A stretch of DNA of 64,000 bases from Dehalococcoidia bacterium (GCA_029936935.1 JAPYRQ010000002.1:226-64225); one strand, 5' to 3'; counted from the first letter of the stretch, positions 16,840 to 28,017 are shown. Translations and numbers: made by a program. The notes: generated by a model from the letters alone, not told the origin.

Positions 16840-18120
16840 CTATCTCGACTTGTTCAGCACGAAAGGCACTGTGTCATTAAATGAAATCTCACGATCTTGC
16901 AGAAGTGACACAGAGCGCAAGCGGTAATCGGACCCCTTTTCAGGGGTGAAAGGCTCGCCACCCTCCATAATTTCGCGGGCACCTCTTAGGTAGACTCTGC
17001 GCAGGTTGATGATAGCGGAGTCTGATGTCCCCAGGTGCTCTTTTGTCCTGTCACAGATGGCACCCATACCCTCTTGGATGCCGGCGTCCTGCACGGAACC
17101 GTTGGCAATGCCCGTGTAGTTCACGTTGCGCTGCATTTCACGGTCAATGCCGTAATCGTTGTCACGGTTGATGGTTGCCCGCATGGTGCGAGGCTCCAAC
17201 TCCAGATCGCTGGCGGGATGGTTCTCACCCTTGTTCAGAGGCCTACTGGCGTTCCAGCTATAGGTGAACATCCAGCAGTTCTCGTCGTCTGCCGGAATCC
17301 ATCCGTGGCCGCTGTAGGTCAGGTCATCGGCGTTGCCGATAGAACCCGGAATGATCGTGAAGAAAGGCATCATGAACGGGGTGATGCGCCAGTAGTACTC
17401 ATCGTTCTCGGCGTCGCGATTGGCACCGTATACGAAACCGTAGTTGGTGTCCTGCACCACGAATCGCGGGGCACTGTCACCGATCATGGCTGTTGGCTGC
17501 ATGACGCCGTTGCGCACCGGGCGCGCTTCCGGGTGGTCTCGCTGATAGGGCGTCAGGCCAGCGTGGAGGAAGGAGACGTGGCTAGAGTCGATGCCACCCT
17601 CGATGCCCTGCACGTAGTTGTTCTCTTGGAGTCGTCGTGACACCTTGCGATGGCTGTCAGGCACCATGGCCCAACCCACTTCTGGAAGGTCTGGTTGAAG
17701 TTCCGCGGGGCCCATGTACGCCCAGATGAAACCGCCCCAGTCGCGTGCTGGATATGCCGTGATCTTTACTTTGTCCTTGAAGTTGCTCTCCGCTGGCTCA
17801 CTGGGCATGTCTACGCAATCCCCGTTAGTGTCAAACTTCCAGCCGTGGTACACGCAGCGCAGACCGCATTCTTCGTTTCGACCGAAGAACATGCTGGCAC
17901 GACGGTGGGGGCAATAGTTATCGATGAGGCCCACATCACCGTTGGTGTCGCGGAACGCCACTAGCTCCTCATTGAGAATCTTGACGCGTACCGGAGGGCT
18001 GTCCGGCTCTGCAATCTCGTCGGAGCACAGTGCAGGAATCCAGAACCGTCGGAGGTAGTCCCCCATCGGGGTGCTGGGACCGGTCTTACAGATGAGTTCG
18101 TTATCGTTTTGGGTCAGCAT
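16840..18120 (-). CDS. Rieske [2Fe-2S] non-heme-iron oxygenase, alpha-only (phthalate/KshA/VanA-type family), paralog A
   Basis: 426 aa. Rieske motif CPHRRASMFFGRNEECGLRCVYH (CxH-x16-CxxH) and mononuclear Fe motif GGIDSSHVSFLH (D-x2-H-x4-H). AGGAGGG precedes the ATG. Confidence 0.9.
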   Translation of the reverse strand: MLTQNDNELICKTGPSTPMGDYLRRFWIPALCSDEIAEPDSPPVRVKILNEELVAFRDTNGDVGLIDNYCPHRRASMFFGRNEECGLRCVYHGWKFDTNGDCVDMPSEPAESNFKDKVKITAYPARDWGGFIWAYMGPAELQPDLPEVGWAMVPDSHRKVSRRLQENNYVQGIEGGIDSSHVSFLHAGLTPYQRDHPEARPVRNGVMQPTAMIGDSAPRFVVQDTNYGFVYGANRDAENDEYYWRITPFMMPFFTIIPGSIGNADDLTYSGHGWIPADDENCWMFTYSWNASRPLNKGENHPASDLELEPRTMRATINRDNDYGIDREMQRNVNYTGIANGSVQDAGIQEGMGAICDRTKEHLGTSDSAIINLRRVYLRGAREIMEGGEPFTPEKGSDYRLRSVSLLQDREISFNDTVPFVLNKSR

Positions 18121-18185: not shown

Positions 18186-19922
18186 TTACTTCTTGGCAAC
18201 CTGGATCTGGTGGAAGTGGCTCCACAGGCCGGAGACGTTGCCGGGCCAAACCCAGCTCTCAACGAACTCTGGGTTCAGGACGATCTGAGGCGGGAGCCAG
18301 AAGAGGTTCATCGCTATGTGAATCGGATGGGCGATATCGCCAATCTCGCGCAGTAGTTTGTCCTGCTCTGTTGGAAGCATTGTCTTTTGGAGTTGTTTGA
18401 TCAACGGATTTATCTCCAGGGGTTCAAAGCCACCGCCTCGAGGCGTGATATCGGCGTGGTGGACCCGAGTGCTCTGCACGTCGAATGACGCGCTGGACGT
18501 CAGGCCTATCCAATTCTTTAGCTTCAGCGCCCTGGATATGGGACGATGGGCCGCCGAATCGGGGGCTTGGAGTTTCGGCTTCACGCCTACGTCTGCCAAC
18601 ATCGCTCCTATAGACTCCATCGTATCAGCTGCTGCGGCGAATGATGCCACATTGCTGACGTTAACGTTAATTTCCAATGGATTGCTGGGACCGTAACCGG
18701 CCTGTGCCAGGAGATCCCTGGCGGCCTGCGGGTCATAACCGTAGAGACGGTCGTAATTGGCCCGCCATTCCGGGTTGAAGGCCGGGCTGGACTCTGGGAT
18801 GGCCTGGATGATCATATTTTGCCCGGCACCTCTTAGGAATGCATCATTCAGCGCGTTCTTGTCTATGGCCTTGTTAAAGGCATGCCGTACTAGAGGGTTC
18901 AGCCACGGGGAGTCGCAGTGGACGTACCCGCAGGGGGTGTTTTGCGCTTCGTAGCTTCGGTCCGATACGTCTATGTATCCACCTTGGAACGCCGCGAAGA
19001 TTCGGGCACCCTGCTGGGTGCCTTCTGAAACCACCATTCCATCATTGGCGGCTAATTCGGTGCTGTCGGCCCCTAGCTGCGTGATGTGGATCTCGTCTGT
19101 TAATAGGGCTGCAAGCCGGGTAGATTCCTCGCTCATCCACCGGATGGTCAGCTTTGAGAACTCCGGATTGTAACGCCAGTGGTCGTAGTCCACTCGCTCG
19201 AATTCGATGTTCGTCTGCTGGTCGCGGTCGACGTATTTCCACGCAGCGGTGCCCGCAGATGGTGCTGTGTCCATTTGCGGCGGCCCCGATGCCGCATAGT
19301 CAGCAGCGCTCATAATCTCCATTCCGCCGACCTGCTCGGAGAGCCTCCTGAACTGCTCTGCTAAAGGGCTTGGGAGTTGCCAGATGAACTCGGTATCCGT
19401 GAGCGGTTCGATAGTTACTGTCTTGTAGTTCCGTTGGTGGGTATGCTCCGAGTCCTCGGCGCCAAACTCTCCAACAGTGAGGGCCACGTCTTTCCAGCTG
19501 AGGATGCTGCCATCGTGGAAAGGAACGCCGTCTCGGAGTTTGATGCGAATGTCAGAACCATTGGGTTCAATCGACCATTCGGTCGCCAGTTGAGGCACTA
19601 ACGCACCGGTGTCGGCATCCGTGCCGATCAGGTACTCGTACATAGGTACCAACTGAATCTGCGATTGTGGTGATAGCCCTCTCCCAACGTTGTTGGACAG
19701 CAATGAAGGCAACAGCGCTCCAATAATGATCTCGTCCGTCACCGGCGTCATTGCTACAGGGGCGGCTGTTGCTTGTGGAGCCTGGGTTGCAATTGCAGGT
19801 GCGCCAGCATTGGAATCGTCATCGTCATCGTCATCGTCGCTGGAACAAGCGGCTACCAATACTAACGACATTGCTATAACCAAAGTCCATGTGATGAAAT
19901 TTAAACACTTTCGGTTAAGCAT
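18186..19922 (-). CDS. ABC-type solute-binding protein, family 5 (peptide/opine/nickel type), lipoprotein; no cognate permease or ATPase nearby
   Basis: SBP_bac_5-like core (LATEWSIEPNGSDIRIKLRDGVPFHDGS). Start trimmed to MLNRK (19922), giving the signal peptide plus lipobox LVLVAAC|SS, followed by a D8 linker. Confidence 0.85.
   Translation of the reverse strand: MLNRKCLNFITWTLVIAMSLVLVAACSSDDDDDDDDSNAGAPAIATQAPQATAAPVAMTPVTDEIIIGALLPSLLSNNVGRGLSPQSQIQLVPMYEYLIGTDADTGALVPQLATEWSIEPNGSDIRIKLRDGVPFHDGSILSWKDVALTVGEFGAEDSEHTHQRNYKTVTIEPLTDTEFIWQLPSPLAEQFRRLSEQVGGMEIMSAADYAASGPPQMDTAPSAGTAAWKYVDRDQQTNIEFERVDYDHWRYNPEFSKLTIRWMSEESTRLAALLTDEIHITQLGADSTELAANDGMVVSEGTQQGARIFAAFQGGYIDVSDRSYEAQNTPCGYVHCDSPWLNPLVRHAFNKAIDKNALNDAFLRGAGQNMIIQAIPESSPAFNPEWRANYDRLYGYDPQAARDLLAQAGYGPSNPLEINVNVSNVASFAAAADTMESIGAMLADVGVKPKLQAPDSAAHRPISRALKLKNWIGLTSSASFDVQSTRVHHADITPRGGGFEPLEINPLIKQLQKTMLPTEQDKLLREIGDIAHPIHIAMNLFWLPPQIVLNPEFVESWVWPGNVSGLWSHFHQIQVAKK
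19815..19838. repeat. Hexanucleotide microsatellite (ATCGTC)x4 encoding the poly-Asp linker
   Basis: Four perfect tandem ATCGTC units on the + strand, equal to (GACGAT)x4 on the coding strand. They encode DDDDDDDD immediately after the lipobox Cys-Ser-Ser. Confidence 0.9.
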
Positions 19923-19989
19923 TTCTTTCCCCTTATGTTCGCAGTTTTTGTGTTTCTGCCCAATCCTTAAGGACGTTACTTGGGTGTCT

Positions 19990-20178
19990 TCAAGTCTTAA
20001 CACCCGCCTGTTTGCCTGCTTCAATATACGCTTCCCCCAGGGTCATGAACACCTCTGACTCTTTACCCTTGAAATGGATGCTGTACAAAAGCGGCTGGTT
20101 CGATTCGTACAACTCAAATATCTCTGCATTTCCGTTTGGCCCAGCGATGACTTCTACCTTGGTTGCTTCTACTGCCAT
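19990..20178 (-). CDS. Hypothetical 62-aa protein inside the Rieske block
   Basis: MAVEATKVEVIAGPNGNAEIFELYESNQPLLYSIHFKGKESEVFMTLGEAYIEAGKQAGVKT. GAGGAAAGG lies 5 nt upstream of the ATG. It has no Cys, so it is not a ferredoxin. I recognise no family. Confidence 0.45.
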   Translation of the reverse strand: MAVEATKVEVIAGPNGNAEIFELYESNQPLLYSIHFKGKESEVFMTLGEAYIEAGKQAGVKT

Positions 20179-20278: not shown

Positions 20279-21607
20279 CTACCCTGTTGCCTGCTGTTCT
20301 TCTGATAGGGCAGCCCATTGTAGGTCTTGCGTGGCTTCAATACCATTGACCCCGTTAGGTATCAGAGTTGAGACGGACCGAACCTTATACAGGTCCGGGT
20401 TGTCCACGGTCGCCGGTACTGTGCCGTCTTCGCGCAGCGCAATAGCAGCTCTGGCTAAGATACGTCGCATCCTGATGATGCCTGCGTCCGTTGTGCCCAA
20501 GTGTTCCTGGTCGCGCTTGTAAACCACACCCATGCTCTCTGTCATGCCGTTGTCCTGACCTCTACCGGGTATGCCGCTGTAACCAAGCCCGCCTACGCGT
20601 GCCTTTTGAGCATCGCGGTCAACCAAGTAGTCGTTCTCGCGAGTTCCTGCAATCTTGAATCGATCGAACCAGCCGGTGCCATTGCGTGAGCTGTCCACAT
20701 GGAAGGATGTGATCATGCCATCGACAATCGGCGGGCCGCCGAATCCTGGAGGACGGGGCAGTGCAGGGTTTCTGGTGCTGATGTGCCACCGCATGCAGTT
20801 CTCGTCATCCATGGGCACTACTGCGATGAAGCCCTTCTCTCTGAAGCTAGCGGGGATCATTGCGTAGAACGGGAAGAGGAAGTGGGCTATGCGCCAGTAG
20901 GTGGTGTCTTCTTCTGCAGGACGGTTATTGCCGGAAGTGCACCCGAACTCCGTGTCTGTGACAGAGTCACGGGCCCAACGGGTCTTCAATGCATATCGCT
21001 CAAAGGTGACGTCAGGGTCTGGAATCTCCTCTGGCTCCCGTGCACCGTTGTGAAGGAAACTGACATGGGACGTGTCGTAGTCACCTTCAAGAGACTGCAT
21101 CCAGTTACATTCTGAGTAGTAGCCGCTGACGGTGTACTGGCCTTCGGGCATCATGTTGGCTACCAGTGACGGCAACGGCGGAGCTTCTTGCCGGGGCCCC
21201 ATGTAGACCCAAATCAGTCCGCCACGCTCTTCTACTTTGTACGAAATGGCTCGAACCTTGTCGATGAACCTACTCTCCGGCGGCTCGGAAGGCATGTCCA
21301 GGCAGGTGCCATCGGCAGCAAAATGCCAGCCGTGGTACACACAACGCAAGCCGCACTCTTCATTGCGGGCATAGAACATGGAGGCGCCACGATGCGGACA
21401 GGAGTTCCCTATGACGCCTACTTTTCCGTTGGTGTCTCGGAAGGCGATAAGGTCTTCCCCAAGAAGTTTCAGACGGACTTGCTGACCGTCCGGGTTCTGG
21501 AGTTCCACTGACATCATGGCGGGCATCCAATACTCACGCATCAGGTCGCCCATGATGGTGCCTGGCCCGGTTTGAGTTAGCAGCTCGTTCTCTTCTTTGC
21601 TTAACAT
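20279..21607 (-). CDS. Rieske non-heme-iron oxygenase, alpha-only, paralog C
   Basis: 442 aa. Motifs CPHRGASMFYARNEECGLRCVYH and GDYDTSHVSFLH. GAGGAGG precedes the ATG. Confidence 0.9.
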   Translation of the reverse strand: MLSKEENELLTQTGPGTIMGDLMREYWMPAMMSVELQNPDGQQVRLKLLGEDLIAFRDTNGKVGVIGNSCPHRGASMFYARNEECGLRCVYHGWHFAADGTCLDMPSEPPESRFIDKVRAISYKVEERGGLIWVYMGPRQEAPPLPSLVANMMPEGQYTVSGYYSECNWMQSLEGDYDTSHVSFLHNGAREPEEIPDPDVTFERYALKTRWARDSVTDTEFGCTSGNNRPAEEDTTYWRIAHFLFPFYAMIPASFREKGFIAVVPMDDENCMRWHISTRNPALPRPPGFGGPPIVDGMITSFHVDSSRNGTGWFDRFKIAGTRENDYLVDRDAQKARVGGLGYSGIPGRGQDNGMTESMGVVYKRDQEHLGTTDAGIIRMRRILARAAIALREDGTVPATVDNPDLYKVRSVSTLIPNGVNGIEATQDLQWAALSEEQQATG

Positions 21608-21698: not shown

Positions 21699-22982
21699 TT
21701 ATTGGACCGCCGGTGAGTATCCCTCACCCTCAAACAATGCCTCGTGTAGGGCGTCCTGCCAAACGGCATCTTTCGGCAAGACCCGTTCTATTGCTCGAAT
21801 GCCGTAGTAGGTTCCCGCCACTCCCGGAGGGTTCCCACCATCTTCAACGACTTTTGCCGCTTCAAGCAGCATGCGACGTGCGGAGATGATGGCGCGGTCA
21901 GTTGTGGCCAGGTGCTCGTGGGACCTGTCGTACTGGATGCCCATGGACTCCTGAATGGCCCTGTCCTGTAGGTTCGCGGCGCTCTCAATACCGGTGTAGG
22001 TCTTGGTTCGCTGCACCTCGCGGTCGATACCGTAGTCGTTGTCGCGGTTCCAAACGCACCGGAAGCCGTTCTGTACATCGATGTATTCGTAGACCTCTGG
22101 GCCATGCTTGGACCGCAGTTCATCGCTGAGGGGTTCCGGTGCCAGCGTGTACGTCCAGTTGTAGACCATGCAGTTGTCGTCATCCATAGGCACCCACATG
22201 TGACCTGCCACCATCGGCGGTGAATCGCCTCGCCCCACGGTGTTCTGGTTGGGCCGTAGCTGGGTGAACGGCATAACATAGTGGTACGCACGGACAAAGT
22301 TGCCATCCAGATCAGGGACAGGGCGAATAGAGCCGTAGGTATAGCCATAGTCGGTCGGTTGTACTTCAATGTGGGCAACCGTTGCACGCTGCTCGTAGCG
22401 GGCGGCGTTGGTGATGTCATTGTTGTGAAGATAGGTGGCATGGATGGAATCGATCCCACCTTCAAGGGCCTGGGACCAGTTGCCCTCCTGCTTCACCTTG
22501 GTGACGCCCCTATGGGTGTCCGGTACCTGGGTCCACTCGAACTTGGGTGGCGGAGGCTGCTTTTCAGGAGGCCCCATGTACGTCCAGATAACGCCGCCCA
22601 TGTCCAGGCAGGGATAGGACGTGATTTTGACCTTATCCTTGAAGTTGCTCTCGGCGGGCTCACTGGGCATGTCGACACAGTTACCGTTCACATCGAACTT
22701 CCAGCCGTGGTACACGCAGCGCAGGCCACATTCTTCGTTTCGACCGAAGAACATGCTCGCACGACGGTGGGGGCAATAGTTATCGATGAGGCCGATGCTG
22801 CCATCGGTGTCCTTAAATGCGATGAGTTCCTCGCCCACCAATTTCACGCGGACGGGCGTGCCATCCGCCTCTTCAAGTTCCCATGAGAGGAGCGCTGGCA
22901 GCCAGTATCGCCGCATGACTTCCCCCATTGGAGTGCCAGGGCCAGTGTGGACAATGACCTCGTTCTCTTCTCTGTTCAGCAT
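21699..22982 (-). CDS. Rieske non-heme-iron oxygenase, alpha-only, paralog B
   Basis: 427 aa. Motifs CPHRRASMFFGRNEECGLRCVYH and GGIDSIHATYLH. GAGGAAGGGG precedes the ATG. Confidence 0.9.
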   Translation of the reverse strand: MLNREENEVIVHTGPGTPMGEVMRRYWLPALLSWELEEADGTPVRVKLVGEELIAFKDTDGSIGLIDNYCPHRRASMFFGRNEECGLRCVYHGWKFDVNGNCVDMPSEPAESNFKDKVKITSYPCLDMGGVIWTYMGPPEKQPPPPKFEWTQVPDTHRGVTKVKQEGNWSQALEGGIDSIHATYLHNNDITNAARYEQRATVAHIEVQPTDYGYTYGSIRPVPDLDGNFVRAYHYVMPFTQLRPNQNTVGRGDSPPMVAGHMWVPMDDDNCMVYNWTYTLAPEPLSDELRSKHGPEVYEYIDVQNGFRCVWNRDNDYGIDREVQRTKTYTGIESAANLQDRAIQESMGIQYDRSHEHLATTDRAIISARRMLLEAAKVVEDGGNPPGVAGTYYGIRAIERVLPKDAVWQDALHEALFEGEGYSPAVQ

Positions 22983-23023: not shown

Positions 23024-24283
23024 CTAGGCCGCGCCGACAGCCACCTTCTCTGTGGTCTCCTCAAACGTGACCTTCTTATCCATCACATCGGCGACAGAAC
23101 GGACGCGGTATGCCGAGCCCTTCATGGGCACAAAGGGCTCCTTACCTTCCAACAGGTCTCGACACCCCTGAAGGTACATACGGCGCATGGCGATGACTGC
23201 TGAGTCCGATGTGCCAAGGTGCTCTTTGGTGCGGTCACAGATGGCGCCCATGCTCTCCTGAATGCCTGAGTCCTGCACGGAGATTGCCTCGATGCCGGTG
23301 TAGGTCTTGGTTCGTTGCACTTCACGGTCAATGCCGTAGTCGTTGTCGGCGTTCATGGCCGCGCGCATGGAGCGGGGTTCCAATTCAAGGAAGCTGGCGC
23401 CGTGACCTTCGCCTTCGTTGAGTGGCCTACTGGCGTTCCAGCTATAGGTGAACATCCAGCAATTTTCATCATCGGCAGGCACCCAACCATGGCCGCTGTA
23501 CGTGCGTTCATCGGGGTCGCCTGTGCCTCCAGGTATCACCGTGAAGAAGGGGAGCATGAAAGGCGTTAGTCGCCAGTAGTAGGAGTCGTTCTCCGCTTCA
23601 CGGTTGGCTCCGTACACAAACCCGTAGTCCGTGTTCTTCACAATGAAGTGAGGTGCGGTGTCTGTATTGCTGAGGGAATGACCTGCGCGCGAGGGATCGT
23701 CCCGTACCACTGGAGGAAGACCGAAGTGCAGGAAGGAGATGTGGCTGGAATCGATGCCACCCTCGATGCCCTGCACGAAGTTATTCTCCTGCAACCGGCG
23801 GGATACTTTGCGGTTGCTTTCAGGAACCATTGCCCAGCCGACTTCCGGGAGCTCCGGCATCGATTCTGCTGGCCCCATGTACGCCCAGATATAACCGCCC
23901 CAGTCTTCAGCTGGGTACGACTTGATCTTCACCTTGTCCTTGAAATTGCTTTCGGCAGGCTCGGATGGCATGTCCACGCAATCGCCCTTGGTATCGAACT
24001 TCCAGCCGTGGTACACGCACCGCAGGCCGCACTCTTCGTTGCGACCGAAGAACATGCTTGCTCGGCGGTGGGGGCAGAAGTTGTCGATGATGCCAACATC
24101 GCCATTGGTGTCGCGGAAGGCGATGAGTTCTTCGTTGAGGATCTTGACCCGGACTGGCGGGCTATCGGGTTCGGCAATCTCTTCAGACAGCAGGGCTGGC
24201 ATCCAGAACCGCCTCAGATACTCGCCCATGGGAGTGCCGGGGCCGGTCCTGGTGATCATCTCATTGTCTTGTGCGCTCAGCAT
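23024..24283 (-). CDS. Rieske non-heme-iron oxygenase, alpha-only, paralog A' (closest to A)
   Basis: 419 aa. Motifs CPHRRASMFFGRNEECGLRCVYH and GGIDSSHISFLH. AGGAAGGG precedes the ATG. Confidence 0.9.
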   Translation of the reverse strand: MLSAQDNEMITRTGPGTPMGEYLRRFWMPALLSEEIAEPDSPPVRVKILNEELIAFRDTNGDVGIIDNFCPHRRASMFFGRNEECGLRCVYHGWKFDTKGDCVDMPSEPAESNFKDKVKIKSYPAEDWGGYIWAYMGPAESMPELPEVGWAMVPESNRKVSRRLQENNFVQGIEGGIDSSHISFLHFGLPPVVRDDPSRAGHSLSNTDTAPHFIVKNTDYGFVYGANREAENDSYYWRLTPFMLPFFTVIPGGTGDPDERTYSGHGWVPADDENCWMFTYSWNASRPLNEGEGHGASFLELEPRSMRAAMNADNDYGIDREVQRTKTYTGIEAISVQDSGIQESMGAICDRTKEHLGTSDSAVIAMRRMYLQGCRDLLEGKEPFVPMKGSAYRVRSVADVMDKKVTFEETTEKVAVGAA

Positions 24284-24333: not shown

Positions 24334-25623
24334 CTACCCCATGATTGGCGAGTACTCGGCTCCCTCAAACAGCAGTTCCTTCATACCCTCTTGCCACGGG
24401 ACATCAACGGGCAACACCCGCTGGATGGATCTGACTTTGTAGTACGAGGGCCCTGTGCCCCTTGGGGTGCCGCCATCACCAACAACGTTGGCAGCTTCCT
24501 GAAGCATGCGGCGTGTGGCAATGATTGCGCGGTCCGTAGTCGCCAGGTGCTCTCGCGTCCGATCAACGATCGTCCCCATGGATTCCTGTATGCCACGGTC
24601 CTGGAGATTGGCACCCACGCGTGCATCGGCAAGGATGCCTGTGAAGGTCTGCGTACGCTGCGCTTCTCGATCGATGCCGTAGTCGTTATCGGCGTTCCAG
24701 ATGCATCGGAACCCGTTGTTGATGTCGATGACCTCGTAAGCCAGGTCAGAATGCTTGGCCTTGTCTGCCTCGGTTAGCGGCTCCTCGCCAAGGGAGTACA
24801 CGAAGTTCCAGACGAAGTGGTTCTCATCGTCAATGGGCACCCACATATGTCCGGCTACTTTGGGGGATGCACTACTTTCACGACGGTCGTCCGGGCGAAG
24901 CTGCGTGAAGGGCATGATGAACTGGTACGCCCGAACGAAATTCCCCTCCTCCTTGGAGAGGTACCGGACAGAGCCGTAGGCATAGCCATAGTCGGTCGGT
25001 TCCACCTCAATGCTCGGTGCGGCAGAGCGGGATTCGTATCGAGTGGTGTTGGTGATATCGTTGTTGTGGAGGTAGGAAGCGTGGACGGAATCAACGCCAC
25101 CCTCCAGGCCCTGCAGCCAGTTGCTCTCCTGAAGCACCTTGTTCACTGCCCTGTGTGTCTCCACTACCTGAGTCCACTCAAACATTGGCGGTGGTGGCTG
25201 GTTCTCCAGTGTGCCCATGTAGGTCCAAATCACGCCGCCTATGTCCATGCAGGGGTAGGCCAGTACCTTGACCTTGTCTTTGAAGTTGCTTTCGGAGGGC
25301 TCGGAGGGCATGTCTACACAGTTGCCATCCACGTCAAACTTCCAGCCGTGATAGACGCAGCGTAGGCCGCATTCTTCGTTCCTGCCGAAGAACATGCTTG
25401 CCCTGCGGTGGGGGCAGTAGTTGTCGATGAGCCCTATCTTGCCGTCAGTGTCCTTGAAGGCGATAAGCTCCTCGCCCAGCAGCTTCACCCGCACCGGTGT
25501 GCCGTCTGACTCCGCTACTTCCCATGAAAGGAGGGCCGGAATCCAGTATCGGCGCATCAACTCCCCCATAGGGGTGCCGGGTCCAGTTTGGGATACAAGC
25601 TGGTTATCTTGAGCGTTGAGCAA
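24334..25623 (-). CDS. Rieske non-heme-iron oxygenase, alpha-only, paralog B' (closest to B)
   Basis: 429 aa. Motifs CPHRRASMFFGRNEECGLRCVYH and GGVDSVHASYLH. It uses a TTG start preceded by GGAGGAAG. Confidence 0.9.
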   Translation of the reverse strand: MLNAQDNQLVSQTGPGTPMGELMRRYWIPALLSWEVAESDGTPVRVKLLGEELIAFKDTDGKIGLIDNYCPHRRASMFFGRNEECGLRCVYHGWKFDVDGNCVDMPSEPSESNFKDKVKVLAYPCMDIGGVIWTYMGTLENQPPPPMFEWTQVVETHRAVNKVLQESNWLQGLEGGVDSVHASYLHNNDITNTTRYESRSAAPSIEVEPTDYGYAYGSVRYLSKEEGNFVRAYQFIMPFTQLRPDDRRESSASPKVAGHMWVPIDDENHFVWNFVYSLGEEPLTEADKAKHSDLAYEVIDINNGFRCIWNADNDYGIDREAQRTQTFTGILADARVGANLQDRGIQESMGTIVDRTREHLATTDRAIIATRRMLQEAANVVGDGGTPRGTGPSYYKVRSIQRVLPVDVPWQEGMKELLFEGAEYSPIMG

Positions 25624-25667: not shown

Positions 25668-26960
25668 CTACCCGCCTACAGGCTGATCCTCTGGGTACAT
25701 CTCCGGCAGCAGGACATCCCGCCAGGCCAGCTTGCCATCAAATACCTTCTCAATTGCGCGAAGGTTGTAGTACGACGTGGTGTCAGCGCCCCTGGGTGAG
25801 GCACCCTCTGCGACGTCCCGTGTGGCCTCGATGAGCAGTTTACGAGTGGCGATGATTGCCGCGTCCGCGGGCCCAAGGTGCTCACGTGTGCGGTCAACCA
25901 CGGGGCCCATGCTCTCCTGCACGCCACGGTCCTGGGCATTGATGCCATCGATGCCGGTGAACGTGTCCGTCCGCTGGACATCGCGGTCAATAAGCCAGTT
26001 GTTGCGGATGTTGCCCTTCGCCCTGTACTGGTTGTCCGGGTCTACGTTTGGCCAGGCATTGGCAGAACCCTCCTGGGTCCGTTCCTTCTCTGTAAGCGGC
26101 TCTTCGCCAAAGCTGTAAGACCAGTTCCAGACCATGACGTTGTCGTCGTCGATGGGTACCCAGTGGTGTCCATCAACGTGTGTGCGGTCAGGCGCTCCGG
26201 CACGGCCGATCTGGCTCGGTCGAAGTTGGGTGAAGGGCATGGCAAAGTGATAGCCGCGTACGTACTGTTCTTTGTCGCCTAGTGGCCTGATGCCTGTGTA
26301 CCGATAGCCGTAGTCCGTGACGTCCACTTCCAGCTTGGGAGCGCCGCCTCGCACAAAGGGTGTGGACATCTGAATGCCTGCGCTCTTCGCGTTCTCTCGA
26401 ATCTGTCGGTGCAGGATGGGTGCGTGAGAAGAATCGATGCCGCCCTCAAGCGCCTGGAGCCAGTTGGACTCCTGCCAGACCTTGGTCACGCCGCGGTGCG
26501 TTTCCGGCACCCGTGTGTACTCAAAGTTGGGTACAGGTGGAATCTTGTCTGCCGGGCCCATGTAGACCCAGATGATGTCCCCCACTTCATGCGTCGGGTA
26601 CGCTTTGGCCTTGACCTTGTCTTTGAAATCGATTGGCTCGTTCATCTGATCGACACAGTTGCCGTTCACATCGAACTTCCATCCGTGATAGACACAACGA
26701 AGCCCGCTTTCCTCATTGCGACCCAAGAACAGGGAAGCAAGTCTGTGGGGGCAGTTCTCTTCAAGGATACCGATGTCACCGTTGGTGTCGCGGAACGCCA
26801 CCAGATTCTCGGCCATTATGCGTAATCGTACGGGGTCACAGTCCGAATTTGGGAGTTCACTTATGAGCAGTGCGGGCAACCAATACCTTCGCATCGTCTC
26901 ACCCATAGGTGTGCCAGGCCCAATCTTGGTTACCAGCGTGTTTTCATCAGCAGTTAACAT
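25668..26960 (-). CDS. Rieske non-heme-iron oxygenase, alpha-only, paralog D
   Basis: Motifs CPHRLASLFLGRNEESGLRCVYH and GGIDSSHAPILH. The ORF-track start (27098) is trimmed to MLTADENTLV (26960). That start aligns with the other five N-termini and is preceded by GGGGGAGGG. Confidence 0.88.
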   Translation of the reverse strand: MLTADENTLVTKIGPGTPMGETMRRYWLPALLISELPNSDCDPVRLRIMAENLVAFRDTNGDIGILEENCPHRLASLFLGRNEESGLRCVYHGWKFDVNGNCVDQMNEPIDFKDKVKAKAYPTHEVGDIIWVYMGPADKIPPVPNFEYTRVPETHRGVTKVWQESNWLQALEGGIDSSHAPILHRQIRENAKSAGIQMSTPFVRGGAPKLEVDVTDYGYRYTGIRPLGDKEQYVRGYHFAMPFTQLRPSQIGRAGAPDRTHVDGHHWVPIDDDNVMVWNWSYSFGEEPLTEKERTQEGSANAWPNVDPDNQYRAKGNIRNNWLIDRDVQRTDTFTGIDGINAQDRGVQESMGPVVDRTREHLGPADAAIIATRKLLIEATRDVAEGASPRGADTTSYYNLRAIEKVFDGKLAWRDVLLPEMYPEDQPVGG

Positions 26961-27120: not shown

Positions 27121-28017
27121 GTGACGTGGGGTGATGTGATACCTGAACTACCGGAATGGAGAGTGTTCTGCGCTACGGCAAAGTTCCACAGCATCTCCGG
27201 GGCTGCGGAGTCCCTTGGGATAGGCTCTCCAACGGCGACCAAGCAGATTGCGAAGCTTGAAGAGCGACTTGGCGTGCAGCTCCTCGATAGGACGACGCGA
27301 CCGGTGCAACTTACGGCGATGGGTGAGCGATACGCCGCGCTGGCATCGCCGTTGGTAGAAGGTTTTGACAACATGGTCGGCTCCGTGACGGCTGAGGGCA
27401 CGACCGACCCGGTGAGCGTCACTGCGCCGTCAGGGTTTATCAGCTACAAGCTGCCAGATGCGGTGAAGTTCTTTCAAGACACGTTTCCCTACAACCAGGT
27501 CCGTATCTACTCACGCACCAAGTCCGAGGCCATCCGTATGCTGTCTGACGGCGATGTGGATATGGCCCTCGTCGATCCATAGGTGCCGCCACACATCGAT
27601 TTCCAACCGCTCATCACCTTTGAGCGCGTGCTCATCGCTGCTCGAAATCACCCTCTAGCCCAGCAGTATGAAGCCACTATCGATGAGATTGCGCGCTACC
27701 CGCTGACGTTCCTCCGAGCGGGCACAACCACAAGGACCATGCTTGAAGCGGAGATGAAACGGCAGGAAATTCCCTATGAAGTGGGCATTGAGTTGGACCA
27801 CACAGAGGCCGTAAAACGCTACGTGTCGCTGGGCCTTGGAATATCCGTGGTGCCTGAATTCATCGTCGAACCCAGGGACAGAGAAAGCTTGGCGATTATC
27901 CGCGTACAAGGTTCGTATGCAACCGAACAAATCGGCGCCGCGACGTTACGGGAGAAACCCCTCACCACGTCTGCAAGCAACTTCCTTATGGTGCTTCGCC
28001 AGACCCTGGGGCAATAA
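27121..28017 (+). pseudogene. LysR-family transcriptional regulator interrupted by an in-frame TAG (27580-27582)
   Basis: ORF 27121-27582 carries the HTH (FHSISGAAESLGIGSPTATKQIAKLEERLGVQLLDR). ORF 27583-28017 is in the same frame and carries the rest of the LysR substrate-binding domain. The junction reads GTC GAT CCA TAG GTG CCG. The combined length of about 298 aa is typical for a LysR regulator. Confidence 0.8.

Follow-up and report, generated by a model that had tools for sequence, protein, structure and literature searches.

The 64,000-nucleotide stretch of DNA analysed here (the window) comes from a SAR202 / Dehalococcoidia genome, called here W, and carries an array of six paralogous oxygenase genes, A, C, B, A', B' and D (Table 1). 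Throughout, the suffixes _W, _T, _E and so on give the source population of a sequence. The initial annotation of this locus had pointed out that a short segment of A over the Rieske-cluster-coding region is nearer to B than to A', the closest relative of A, and had attributed it to ectopic recombination or gene conversion among array members. The locus raises two questions: whether conversion produced this local resemblance between two otherwise distant paralogs, and whether such exchanges are a lasting regime of the array or isolated episodes.

All six paralogs combine a Rieske [2Fe-2S] domain with a LigXa_C-type catalytic domain (Pfam PF00355 + PF19301), and the CPHR...CVYHGW and (D/E)..H....H motifs are present in six of six. 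From these domains and motifs, the six genes are predicted to encode Rieske non-haem iron oxygenases, more precisely phthalate-dioxygenase / LigXa-like alpha subunits. Among solved structures, 9ina, 7fhr and 7fjl are nearest, all of them phthalate-dioxygenase-type alpha subunits. None of the NCBIfam equivalogs passes its cut-off for these oxygenases and no substrate was therefore assigned. Metagenome assemblies labelled SAR202 / Dehalococcoidia contain the same proteins. It has already been described that ring-hydroxylating (Rieske) oxygenases have expanded in SAR202 to dozens of paralogs per genome, which are thought to widen the substrate range (Saw et al. 2020, PMC6946804).

Two features of the locus should be mentioned in their own right. 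The apparent TTG start of B' (LLNAQDN...) is also kept in populations T, E and G. A divergent gene for a LysR-type regulator (27121-28017, plus strand) adjoins the array and contains an in-frame stop at 27580-27582 (...ALVDP*VPPHIDF...); this regulator is split into two called ORFs in the W population (L001, L002), is intact with 292 aa in T and G, and may be a pseudogene in W.

Table 1. Coordinates of the array genes and of the exchanged segments (window positions unless another sequence is named).
Feature	Position	Strand	Remarks
Paralog A	16840-18120	-	ORF, 426 aa; PF00355 + PF19301; probable conversion recipient
SBP_bac_5 gene	18186-20024		between A and C
Paralog C	20279-21607	-	Rieske + LigXa_C oxygenase; PF00355 + PF19301
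Paralog B	21699-22982	-	ORF, 427 aa; PF00355 + PF19301; probable donor
Paralog A'	23024-24283	-	overall closest relative of A; no part in the A/B patch
Paralog B'	24334-25623	-	apparent TTG start; closest relative of B
Paralog D	25668-26960	-	start set at the internal ATG that aligns with the five other genes
Core patch in A	17836-17931	-	codons 64-95, GLIDNYCPHRRASMFFGRNEECGLRCVYHGWK, Rieske CxH...CxxH motif
Core patch counterpart in B	22698-22793	-	3/96 nt mismatches to A
A-type island in A	17812-17835	-	codons 96-103, FDTNGDCV
Second B-type patch in A	17776-17811	-	codons 104-115; Ser107 = AGT at 17800-17802
Second patch counterpart in B	22638-22673	-	2/36 nt mismatches to A
A/A' conversion in H	L175:2906-3337 and L175:5739-6170		TARA scaffold_2678; flanks A-type and A'-type

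Over their whole length, A groups with A' (75% aa / 71% nt identity) and B with B' (69% aa), while A and B, which are direct repeats 4862 bp apart, share only 49% aa / 57% nt. The same holds in the first 140 aa, with 19 differences between A and A', as the initial annotation had it, and 37 between A and B. The core patch departs from this pattern. There, only 3 of 96 nt distinguish A from B, all three of these differences being synonymous and the encoded peptide being the same, whereas 11 of 96 nt separate A from the corresponding segment of A' (23999-24094); both of these counts reproduce those first given for the locus. B and B' differ at 14 of 96 nt in the same segment. The 5' border of the patch is sharp, since A and B differ at 32 of 72 nt in codons 40-63 immediately upstream. 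Leftwards on the window, the high A/B identity had been described as extending further. An extension does exist in codons 104-115 (2 differences in 36 nt), but it is not continuous with the core, as A and B differ at 10 of the 24 nt of codons 96-103.

The excess of identity over chance was assessed at synonymous sites. Codons that specify the same residue are identical at a proportion of about 0.5 in all 15 pairs of paralogs, A/A' included, and synonymous sites are consequently saturated. In the core patch, by contrast, 27 of 30 same-residue codons are identical (codon-matched scan; pair permutation p = 8e-4), and the A/B pS falls to 0.15 (dS 0.17), compared to 0.73 (dS ~2.7) in the rest of the gene. 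Sliding-window pS calculated for all pairs reaches a minimum of 0.21 for A/B and of 0.37-0.65 for the 14 other pairs. A GENECONV-style column permutation on the six genes, which like the following test was our own implementation, gave a global p <= 5e-4, the floor set by 2000 permutations. A 3SEQ-style walk with A_W as the child and A_T and B_W as the parents yielded p <= 2.5e-4; in codons 65-123, 25 informative sites were B-like and 7 were A-like, compared to 72 and 399 overall. It should be noted that these permutation tests assume homogeneous sites and that the clustering of conserved sites inflates their signals; the mirror 3SEQ-style test in genome T gave p = 0.005 in the same region. Since the permutation nulls ignore this clustering, empirical controls were added. 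Among 60 paralog comparisons from two genomes, both within and between genomes, the lowest number of differences in a gap-free 96-nt window was 3, for A/B, and the next lowest was 9, so that the 59 others were all at least 9. As the permutation signals can be inflated, the strongest evidence comes from the comparison with orthologs.

Orthologous arrays were recovered by exact-protein look-ups of cluster members. Full syntenic six-gene arrays were obtained for populations T (L166), E (L171) and G (L172); in H (L175), A', B and A are present without C and the SBP gene, and the arrays of K (L173), J (L170) and O (L008) are partial or reduced. The near-identity of A and B is missing from all four populations in which the pair was compared, the core segments differing at 14 of 96 nt in T, 14 in E, 16 in G and 21 in H. 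B_W differs from its own orthologs at 12-16 of 96 nt in this segment, a value that matches its gene-wide divergence of 13-14%. A_W and its closest ortholog, A_G, are 8.9% apart over the gene without the Rieske region, yet in the core patch they differ at 18 of 96 nt. In W alone, therefore, A and B are nearer to each other within the patch than to their own orthologs, which is diagnostic of conversion after the divergence of these populations. The patch dS of 0.17 is lower than that of the closest orthologs (~0.41), and the exchange must accordingly be younger than that split. The orthologs face equal constraints and yet do not carry the patch, and codon bias and nucleotide-level selection are therefore excluded as its cause.

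This comparison covers four related populations, in which the gene-by-gene divergences are mosaic, so that the notion of an "orthologous lineage" is a loose one. The divergence amounts to 27% between B'_E and the remaining B' genes, to 26-27% between C_W or C_E and C_G or C_T, and to 18-21% between D_G or D_E and D_W or D_T, the other genes being at 8-14%. Gene content also varies, since O is without B and B' and H without C and the SBP gene. Such mosaic divergence, together with the changes in content, suggests frequent allele replacement between populations and the gain or loss of array members.

Orthologous sequences further allowed the tract in A_W to be dissected. Codons 40-63 (72 nt) are A-type, lying 24-32 nt from B sequences and 6-16 nt from A orthologs. 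Codons 64-95 (96 nt) are 3 nt from B_W, 10-14 nt from the other B genes and 11-18 nt from A orthologs. The next eight codons, 96-103, form an A-type island (10 of 24 nt from B_W, 9-10 from B sequences, 3-6 from A orthologs) that holds the A-specific residues T98 and D101. Codons 104-115 (36 nt) are again B-like, at 2-3 nt from B_W, B_E, B_T and B_G compared to 7-9 nt from A_G, A_E, A_T and A_H, and codons 116-140 (75 nt) return to A-type, at 22 nt from B_W (20-23 from B sequences) and 9-15 nt from A orthologs. The tract is thus a mosaic over about 156 nt, in which 96 B-like nucleotides are followed by 24 of A-type and 36 of B-like sequence.

The direction of transfer is best seen in the second patch. 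In codons 104-115, A_W has B-type states found in none of the A orthologs, and B_W is an ordinary B-type sequence, 2-3 nt from B_E, B_T and B_G and 7 nt from B_K. Ser107 is encoded by AGT in A_W, B_W and B_E and by AGC in the other B orthologs, while all six other A-clade sequences (A_E, A_G, A_T, A_H, A2_T and A_O) use TCN. Such a switch of codon family is hard to achieve by point mutation and it matches the neighbouring paralog, which indicates a transfer from B to A. The core is less one-sided. The shared core sequence is about equidistant from both clades (10-11 nt from A_E, 10-12 nt from B_T), and single sites conflict, GAT67 being B-like and CGA81 A-like. Two of the three core mismatches favour a transfer from B, since A_W retains the B_T state there and B_W is altered. 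The distance of B_W from its orthologs, being that predicted by gene-wide divergence, fits B as the unchanged donor. Judged from these site patterns, the exchange is clearly non-reciprocal in codons 104-115, where A_W is B-type, while the core sites would fit either direction.

We consider it very probable that the patch was produced by conversion between A-type and B-type sequence, and probable, with somewhat less assurance, that the transfer went from B to A. In this scenario, W had already diverged from the nearest populations sampled when two tandem direct paralogs recombined ectopically and non-reciprocally over a short stretch, by which Rieske-motif sequence was copied, most likely from B into A. 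The copied tract would reach at least from codon 64 to codon 115 of A (17776-17931), and the A-type island inside it requires an additional assumption. The mosaic could result from patchy mismatch repair of a single heteroduplex or from two separate events; alternatively, selection against the replacement of T98 and D101 may have preserved the island. Most of the longest exact runs of identity between paralogs, between-genome pairs included, lie in codons 53-120, and protein-level constraint might in this way maintain at the Rieske motif the longest exact nucleotide runs, giving homologous recombination a foothold; no other part of these saturated genes would provide the unbroken identity that it requires. 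As the donor and recipient peptides are identical, conversion of the core would be nearly neutral and carry little or no cost. The part played by the homologous recombination machinery (RecA) and by heteroduplex repair in shaping the mosaic is put forward from general knowledge; we infer, rather than show, this mechanism, the direction in the core and the choice between one event and two.

Could the patch have arisen without any exchange, from chance acting on an invariant Rieske peptide with a common codon bias? Identity is indeed raised in this segment for all pairs among A, A', B and B' (10-14 of 96 nt differ, compared to about 40% elsewhere), paralog pairs taken from different genomes reach exact runs of 32-33 nt here, and some of them, for example B_T and A'_K, differ at only 5 of 89 nt. 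However, the A/B orthologs of the four other populations, under the same constraint, differ at 14-21 of 96 nt, a range that also disposes of the extreme codon bias which the initial annotation had named as a possible refutation. In the two-genome control, every other pair had 9 or more differences. At the regional pS of 0.62-0.74, a binomial model gives a probability of ~1e-5 or lower for no more than 3 synonymous differences among some 20 synonymous sites, and the TCN to AGT switch at Ser107 of A_W equals B exactly. This explanation is largely refuted by the orthologous arrays and we regard it as very unlikely. An artefact of assembly or binning, by which reads of two paralogs were joined or smoothed, deserves thought for any metagenome assembly of an uncultured SAR202 population such as this one, but it is hardly credible here. 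Through codons 64-95, the A gene reads the same in six assemblies made from different samples, with A-type flanks on both sides, and two of these six span both A and B with the shared 35-nt run in both genes. Moreover, the 96-nt patch, set between unique flanks, does not reach the length of a read pair and is no product of repeat collapse.

A further possibility is that A and B, or A alone, were patched from a paralog elsewhere in the genome or by an imported mosaic allele. SAR202 genomes carry dozens of candidate sources (PMC6946804), the mosaic divergences seen above (27% for B'_E, 26-27% for C_W versus C_G and C_T, 19% for D_G) indicate frequent allele replacement, and the shared core is matched closely by neither the A nor the B orthologs. 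Yet no third copy of the patch was found within the 64-kb window, and the shared 35-nt run is restricted to W-population loci among the 178 loci examined. Moreover, B need not have been overwritten, since the distance of its patch to its orthologs equals the gene-wide divergence, and even then A-type and B-type sequence would have had to undergo conversion within a genome somewhere. A third source is consequently improbable, although less so than chance under constraint, and conversion between the two resident genes of W is the reading that we retain.

Conversion in the Rieske domain is not confined to W. In population H, the genes A_H and A'_H share 432 nt without a single mismatch (gene nt 112-543, codons 38-181), which constitutes an independent, unambiguous and much larger A/A' conversion in this domain. 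When neighbour-joining trees are built from the catalytic domain, clean ortholog clades are recovered (bootstrap 94-100). In those of the Rieske region, A and A' of one population fall together in H (bootstrap 100) and in O (91), and B'_E sits among the B genes. Every lineage-specific event that was detected falls in the Rieske domain. Taken together, the orthologs without the patch, the B-type states in A and the 432-nt conversion in H uphold the proposal of ectopic recombination or gene conversion over the Rieske-cluster-coding segment.

The broader statement of the initial annotation, according to which the cofactor module of the array undergoes concerted evolution, is not supported by this analysis. 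With six genes and two genomes, 128 sites show the concerted pattern (agreement within genomes, difference between genomes) and 136 the opposite one. In the Rieske region, the difference between within-genome and between-genome paralog distances is about zero for 14 of 15 pairs, the exception being A/A' (+0.05), which is driven by H and O. Array-wide concerted evolution was therefore rejected, and the equality of within- and between-genome distances indicates that the similarity of the Rieske domains is due mostly to purifying selection, together with rare, local and lineage-specific conversions. Inside the A/B patch itself, four-taxon site patterns gave 3 concerted sites and 1 opposite site, a test that is too coarse for one short tract. 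A separate observation concerns Ser107 in A'_W (23963-23965) and B'_W (25303-25305), where both genes use TCC and their T and G orthologs use AGC. This switch, in the same direction in two neighbours, hints at further short exchanges, A'/B' or with B, in T and G; the pair-level p is 5e-4, which falls short of global significance.

Residue 77 of the oxygenases (codon 77 of A, 17890-17892), located seven residues after the first Rieske Cys (CPHRRAS-M/L-FF), is the sole alignment column in which at least three paralogs change alike by genome. Met77 (ATG) is found in five of the six paralogs of W and of E (A, A', B, B' and C) and, in K (L173), in A', B and an upstream partial gene, while Leu77 is found in every paralog of T, G, H, O and J; in the wider family, the frequency of Met77 is about 15%. 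In paralog C, the codons flanking Met77 are C-specific and the shared stretch is at most 7-10 nt. Met77 is thus unlikely to have reached C as a hitch-hiker of conversion, for which the tract would be no longer than these 7-10 nt, and this suggests parallel substitution, at least in C. In A, A', B and B', the flanks of Met77 are identical in any case.

One may speculate that the Rieske module is a shared, exchangeable cassette whose residue 77 is co-adapted to a common reductase or ferredoxin, the change at this position having spread through micro-conversion or parallel selection. The exchanges on which this idea builds are those between A and B in W and between A and A' in H, probably that between A and A' in O, and the B-like B' of E. 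We hold it to be doubtful. If true, it would be a concrete case of co-evolution at the level of a module, in an array of enzymes with freely diverging catalytic domains.

Other shared fragments of the array were also considered. The perfect 38-nt run common to A and A' that had been noted at the outset is present (17240-17277 = 23424-23461, CWMFTYSWNASRP, alignment codons 289-301). It is nearly invariant in 14 of 14 A and A' orthologs examined, including that of the distant genome O, and its interpretation as a recent exchange was rejected on account of this conservation across all A and A' orthologs. The synonymous conservation of the run is unusual and is partly due to Trp, Met and two-fold degenerate codons. 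Similarly, an A'/B fragment in codons 342-363 is kept in all orthologs and was rejected as a recent conversion. The A'/D fragment in codons 362-403 and the C/B fragment in codons 250-349 had no global significance in the GENECONV-style test.

The exchange in W shows that old, functionally diverged paralogs in the large oxygenase arrays of SAR202 still swap short stretches of sequence at the cofactor-binding motif. As the N-terminal module may have another history than the catalytic domain, phylogenies and orthology calls drawn from Rieske-domain sequence or from Rieske-motif amplicons should be treated with caution. The patch also provides a dated recombination marker within a population of an uncultured marine lineage. 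The term "gene conversion" has no occurrence in the account of the SAR202 paralog expansions (PMC6946804), and our full-text literature searches brought up no report of such conversion between paralogs of Rieske oxygenases.

With respect to mechanism, the A/B patch is an ordinary instance of intragenomic gene conversion and calls for no new process; what is unusual is the great age of the copies and the confinement of the tract to the cofactor motif. Intragenomic conversion between bacterial paralogs is well known for tufA and tufB in Salmonella, for rRNA operons and for the nifH copies of Rhizobium etli. A review by Santoyo and Romero (2005) is said to cover such conversion between bacterial paralogs. 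As in these classic cases, a short and nearly identical tract lies within diverged copies, its synonymous sites are homogenised, paralogs of one genome are nearer to each other in the tract than to their orthologs, and the tract sits where identity is highest. Mosaic conversion tracts are known to arise from heteroduplex mismatch repair between diverged sequences. The tract in A_W resembles these in that it switches between converted and unconverted sequence over about 156 nt, and differs from them in that the data fit either one event or two, with selection on T98 and D101 as an alternative. Whereas in the classic cases the copies are nearly identical over their full length through frequent conversion, the present paralogs are old (saturated dS, 49% aa identity), and the exchanges between them are rare, span about 100-430 nt, affect the cofactor-binding module only and leave the family as a whole unhomogenised.
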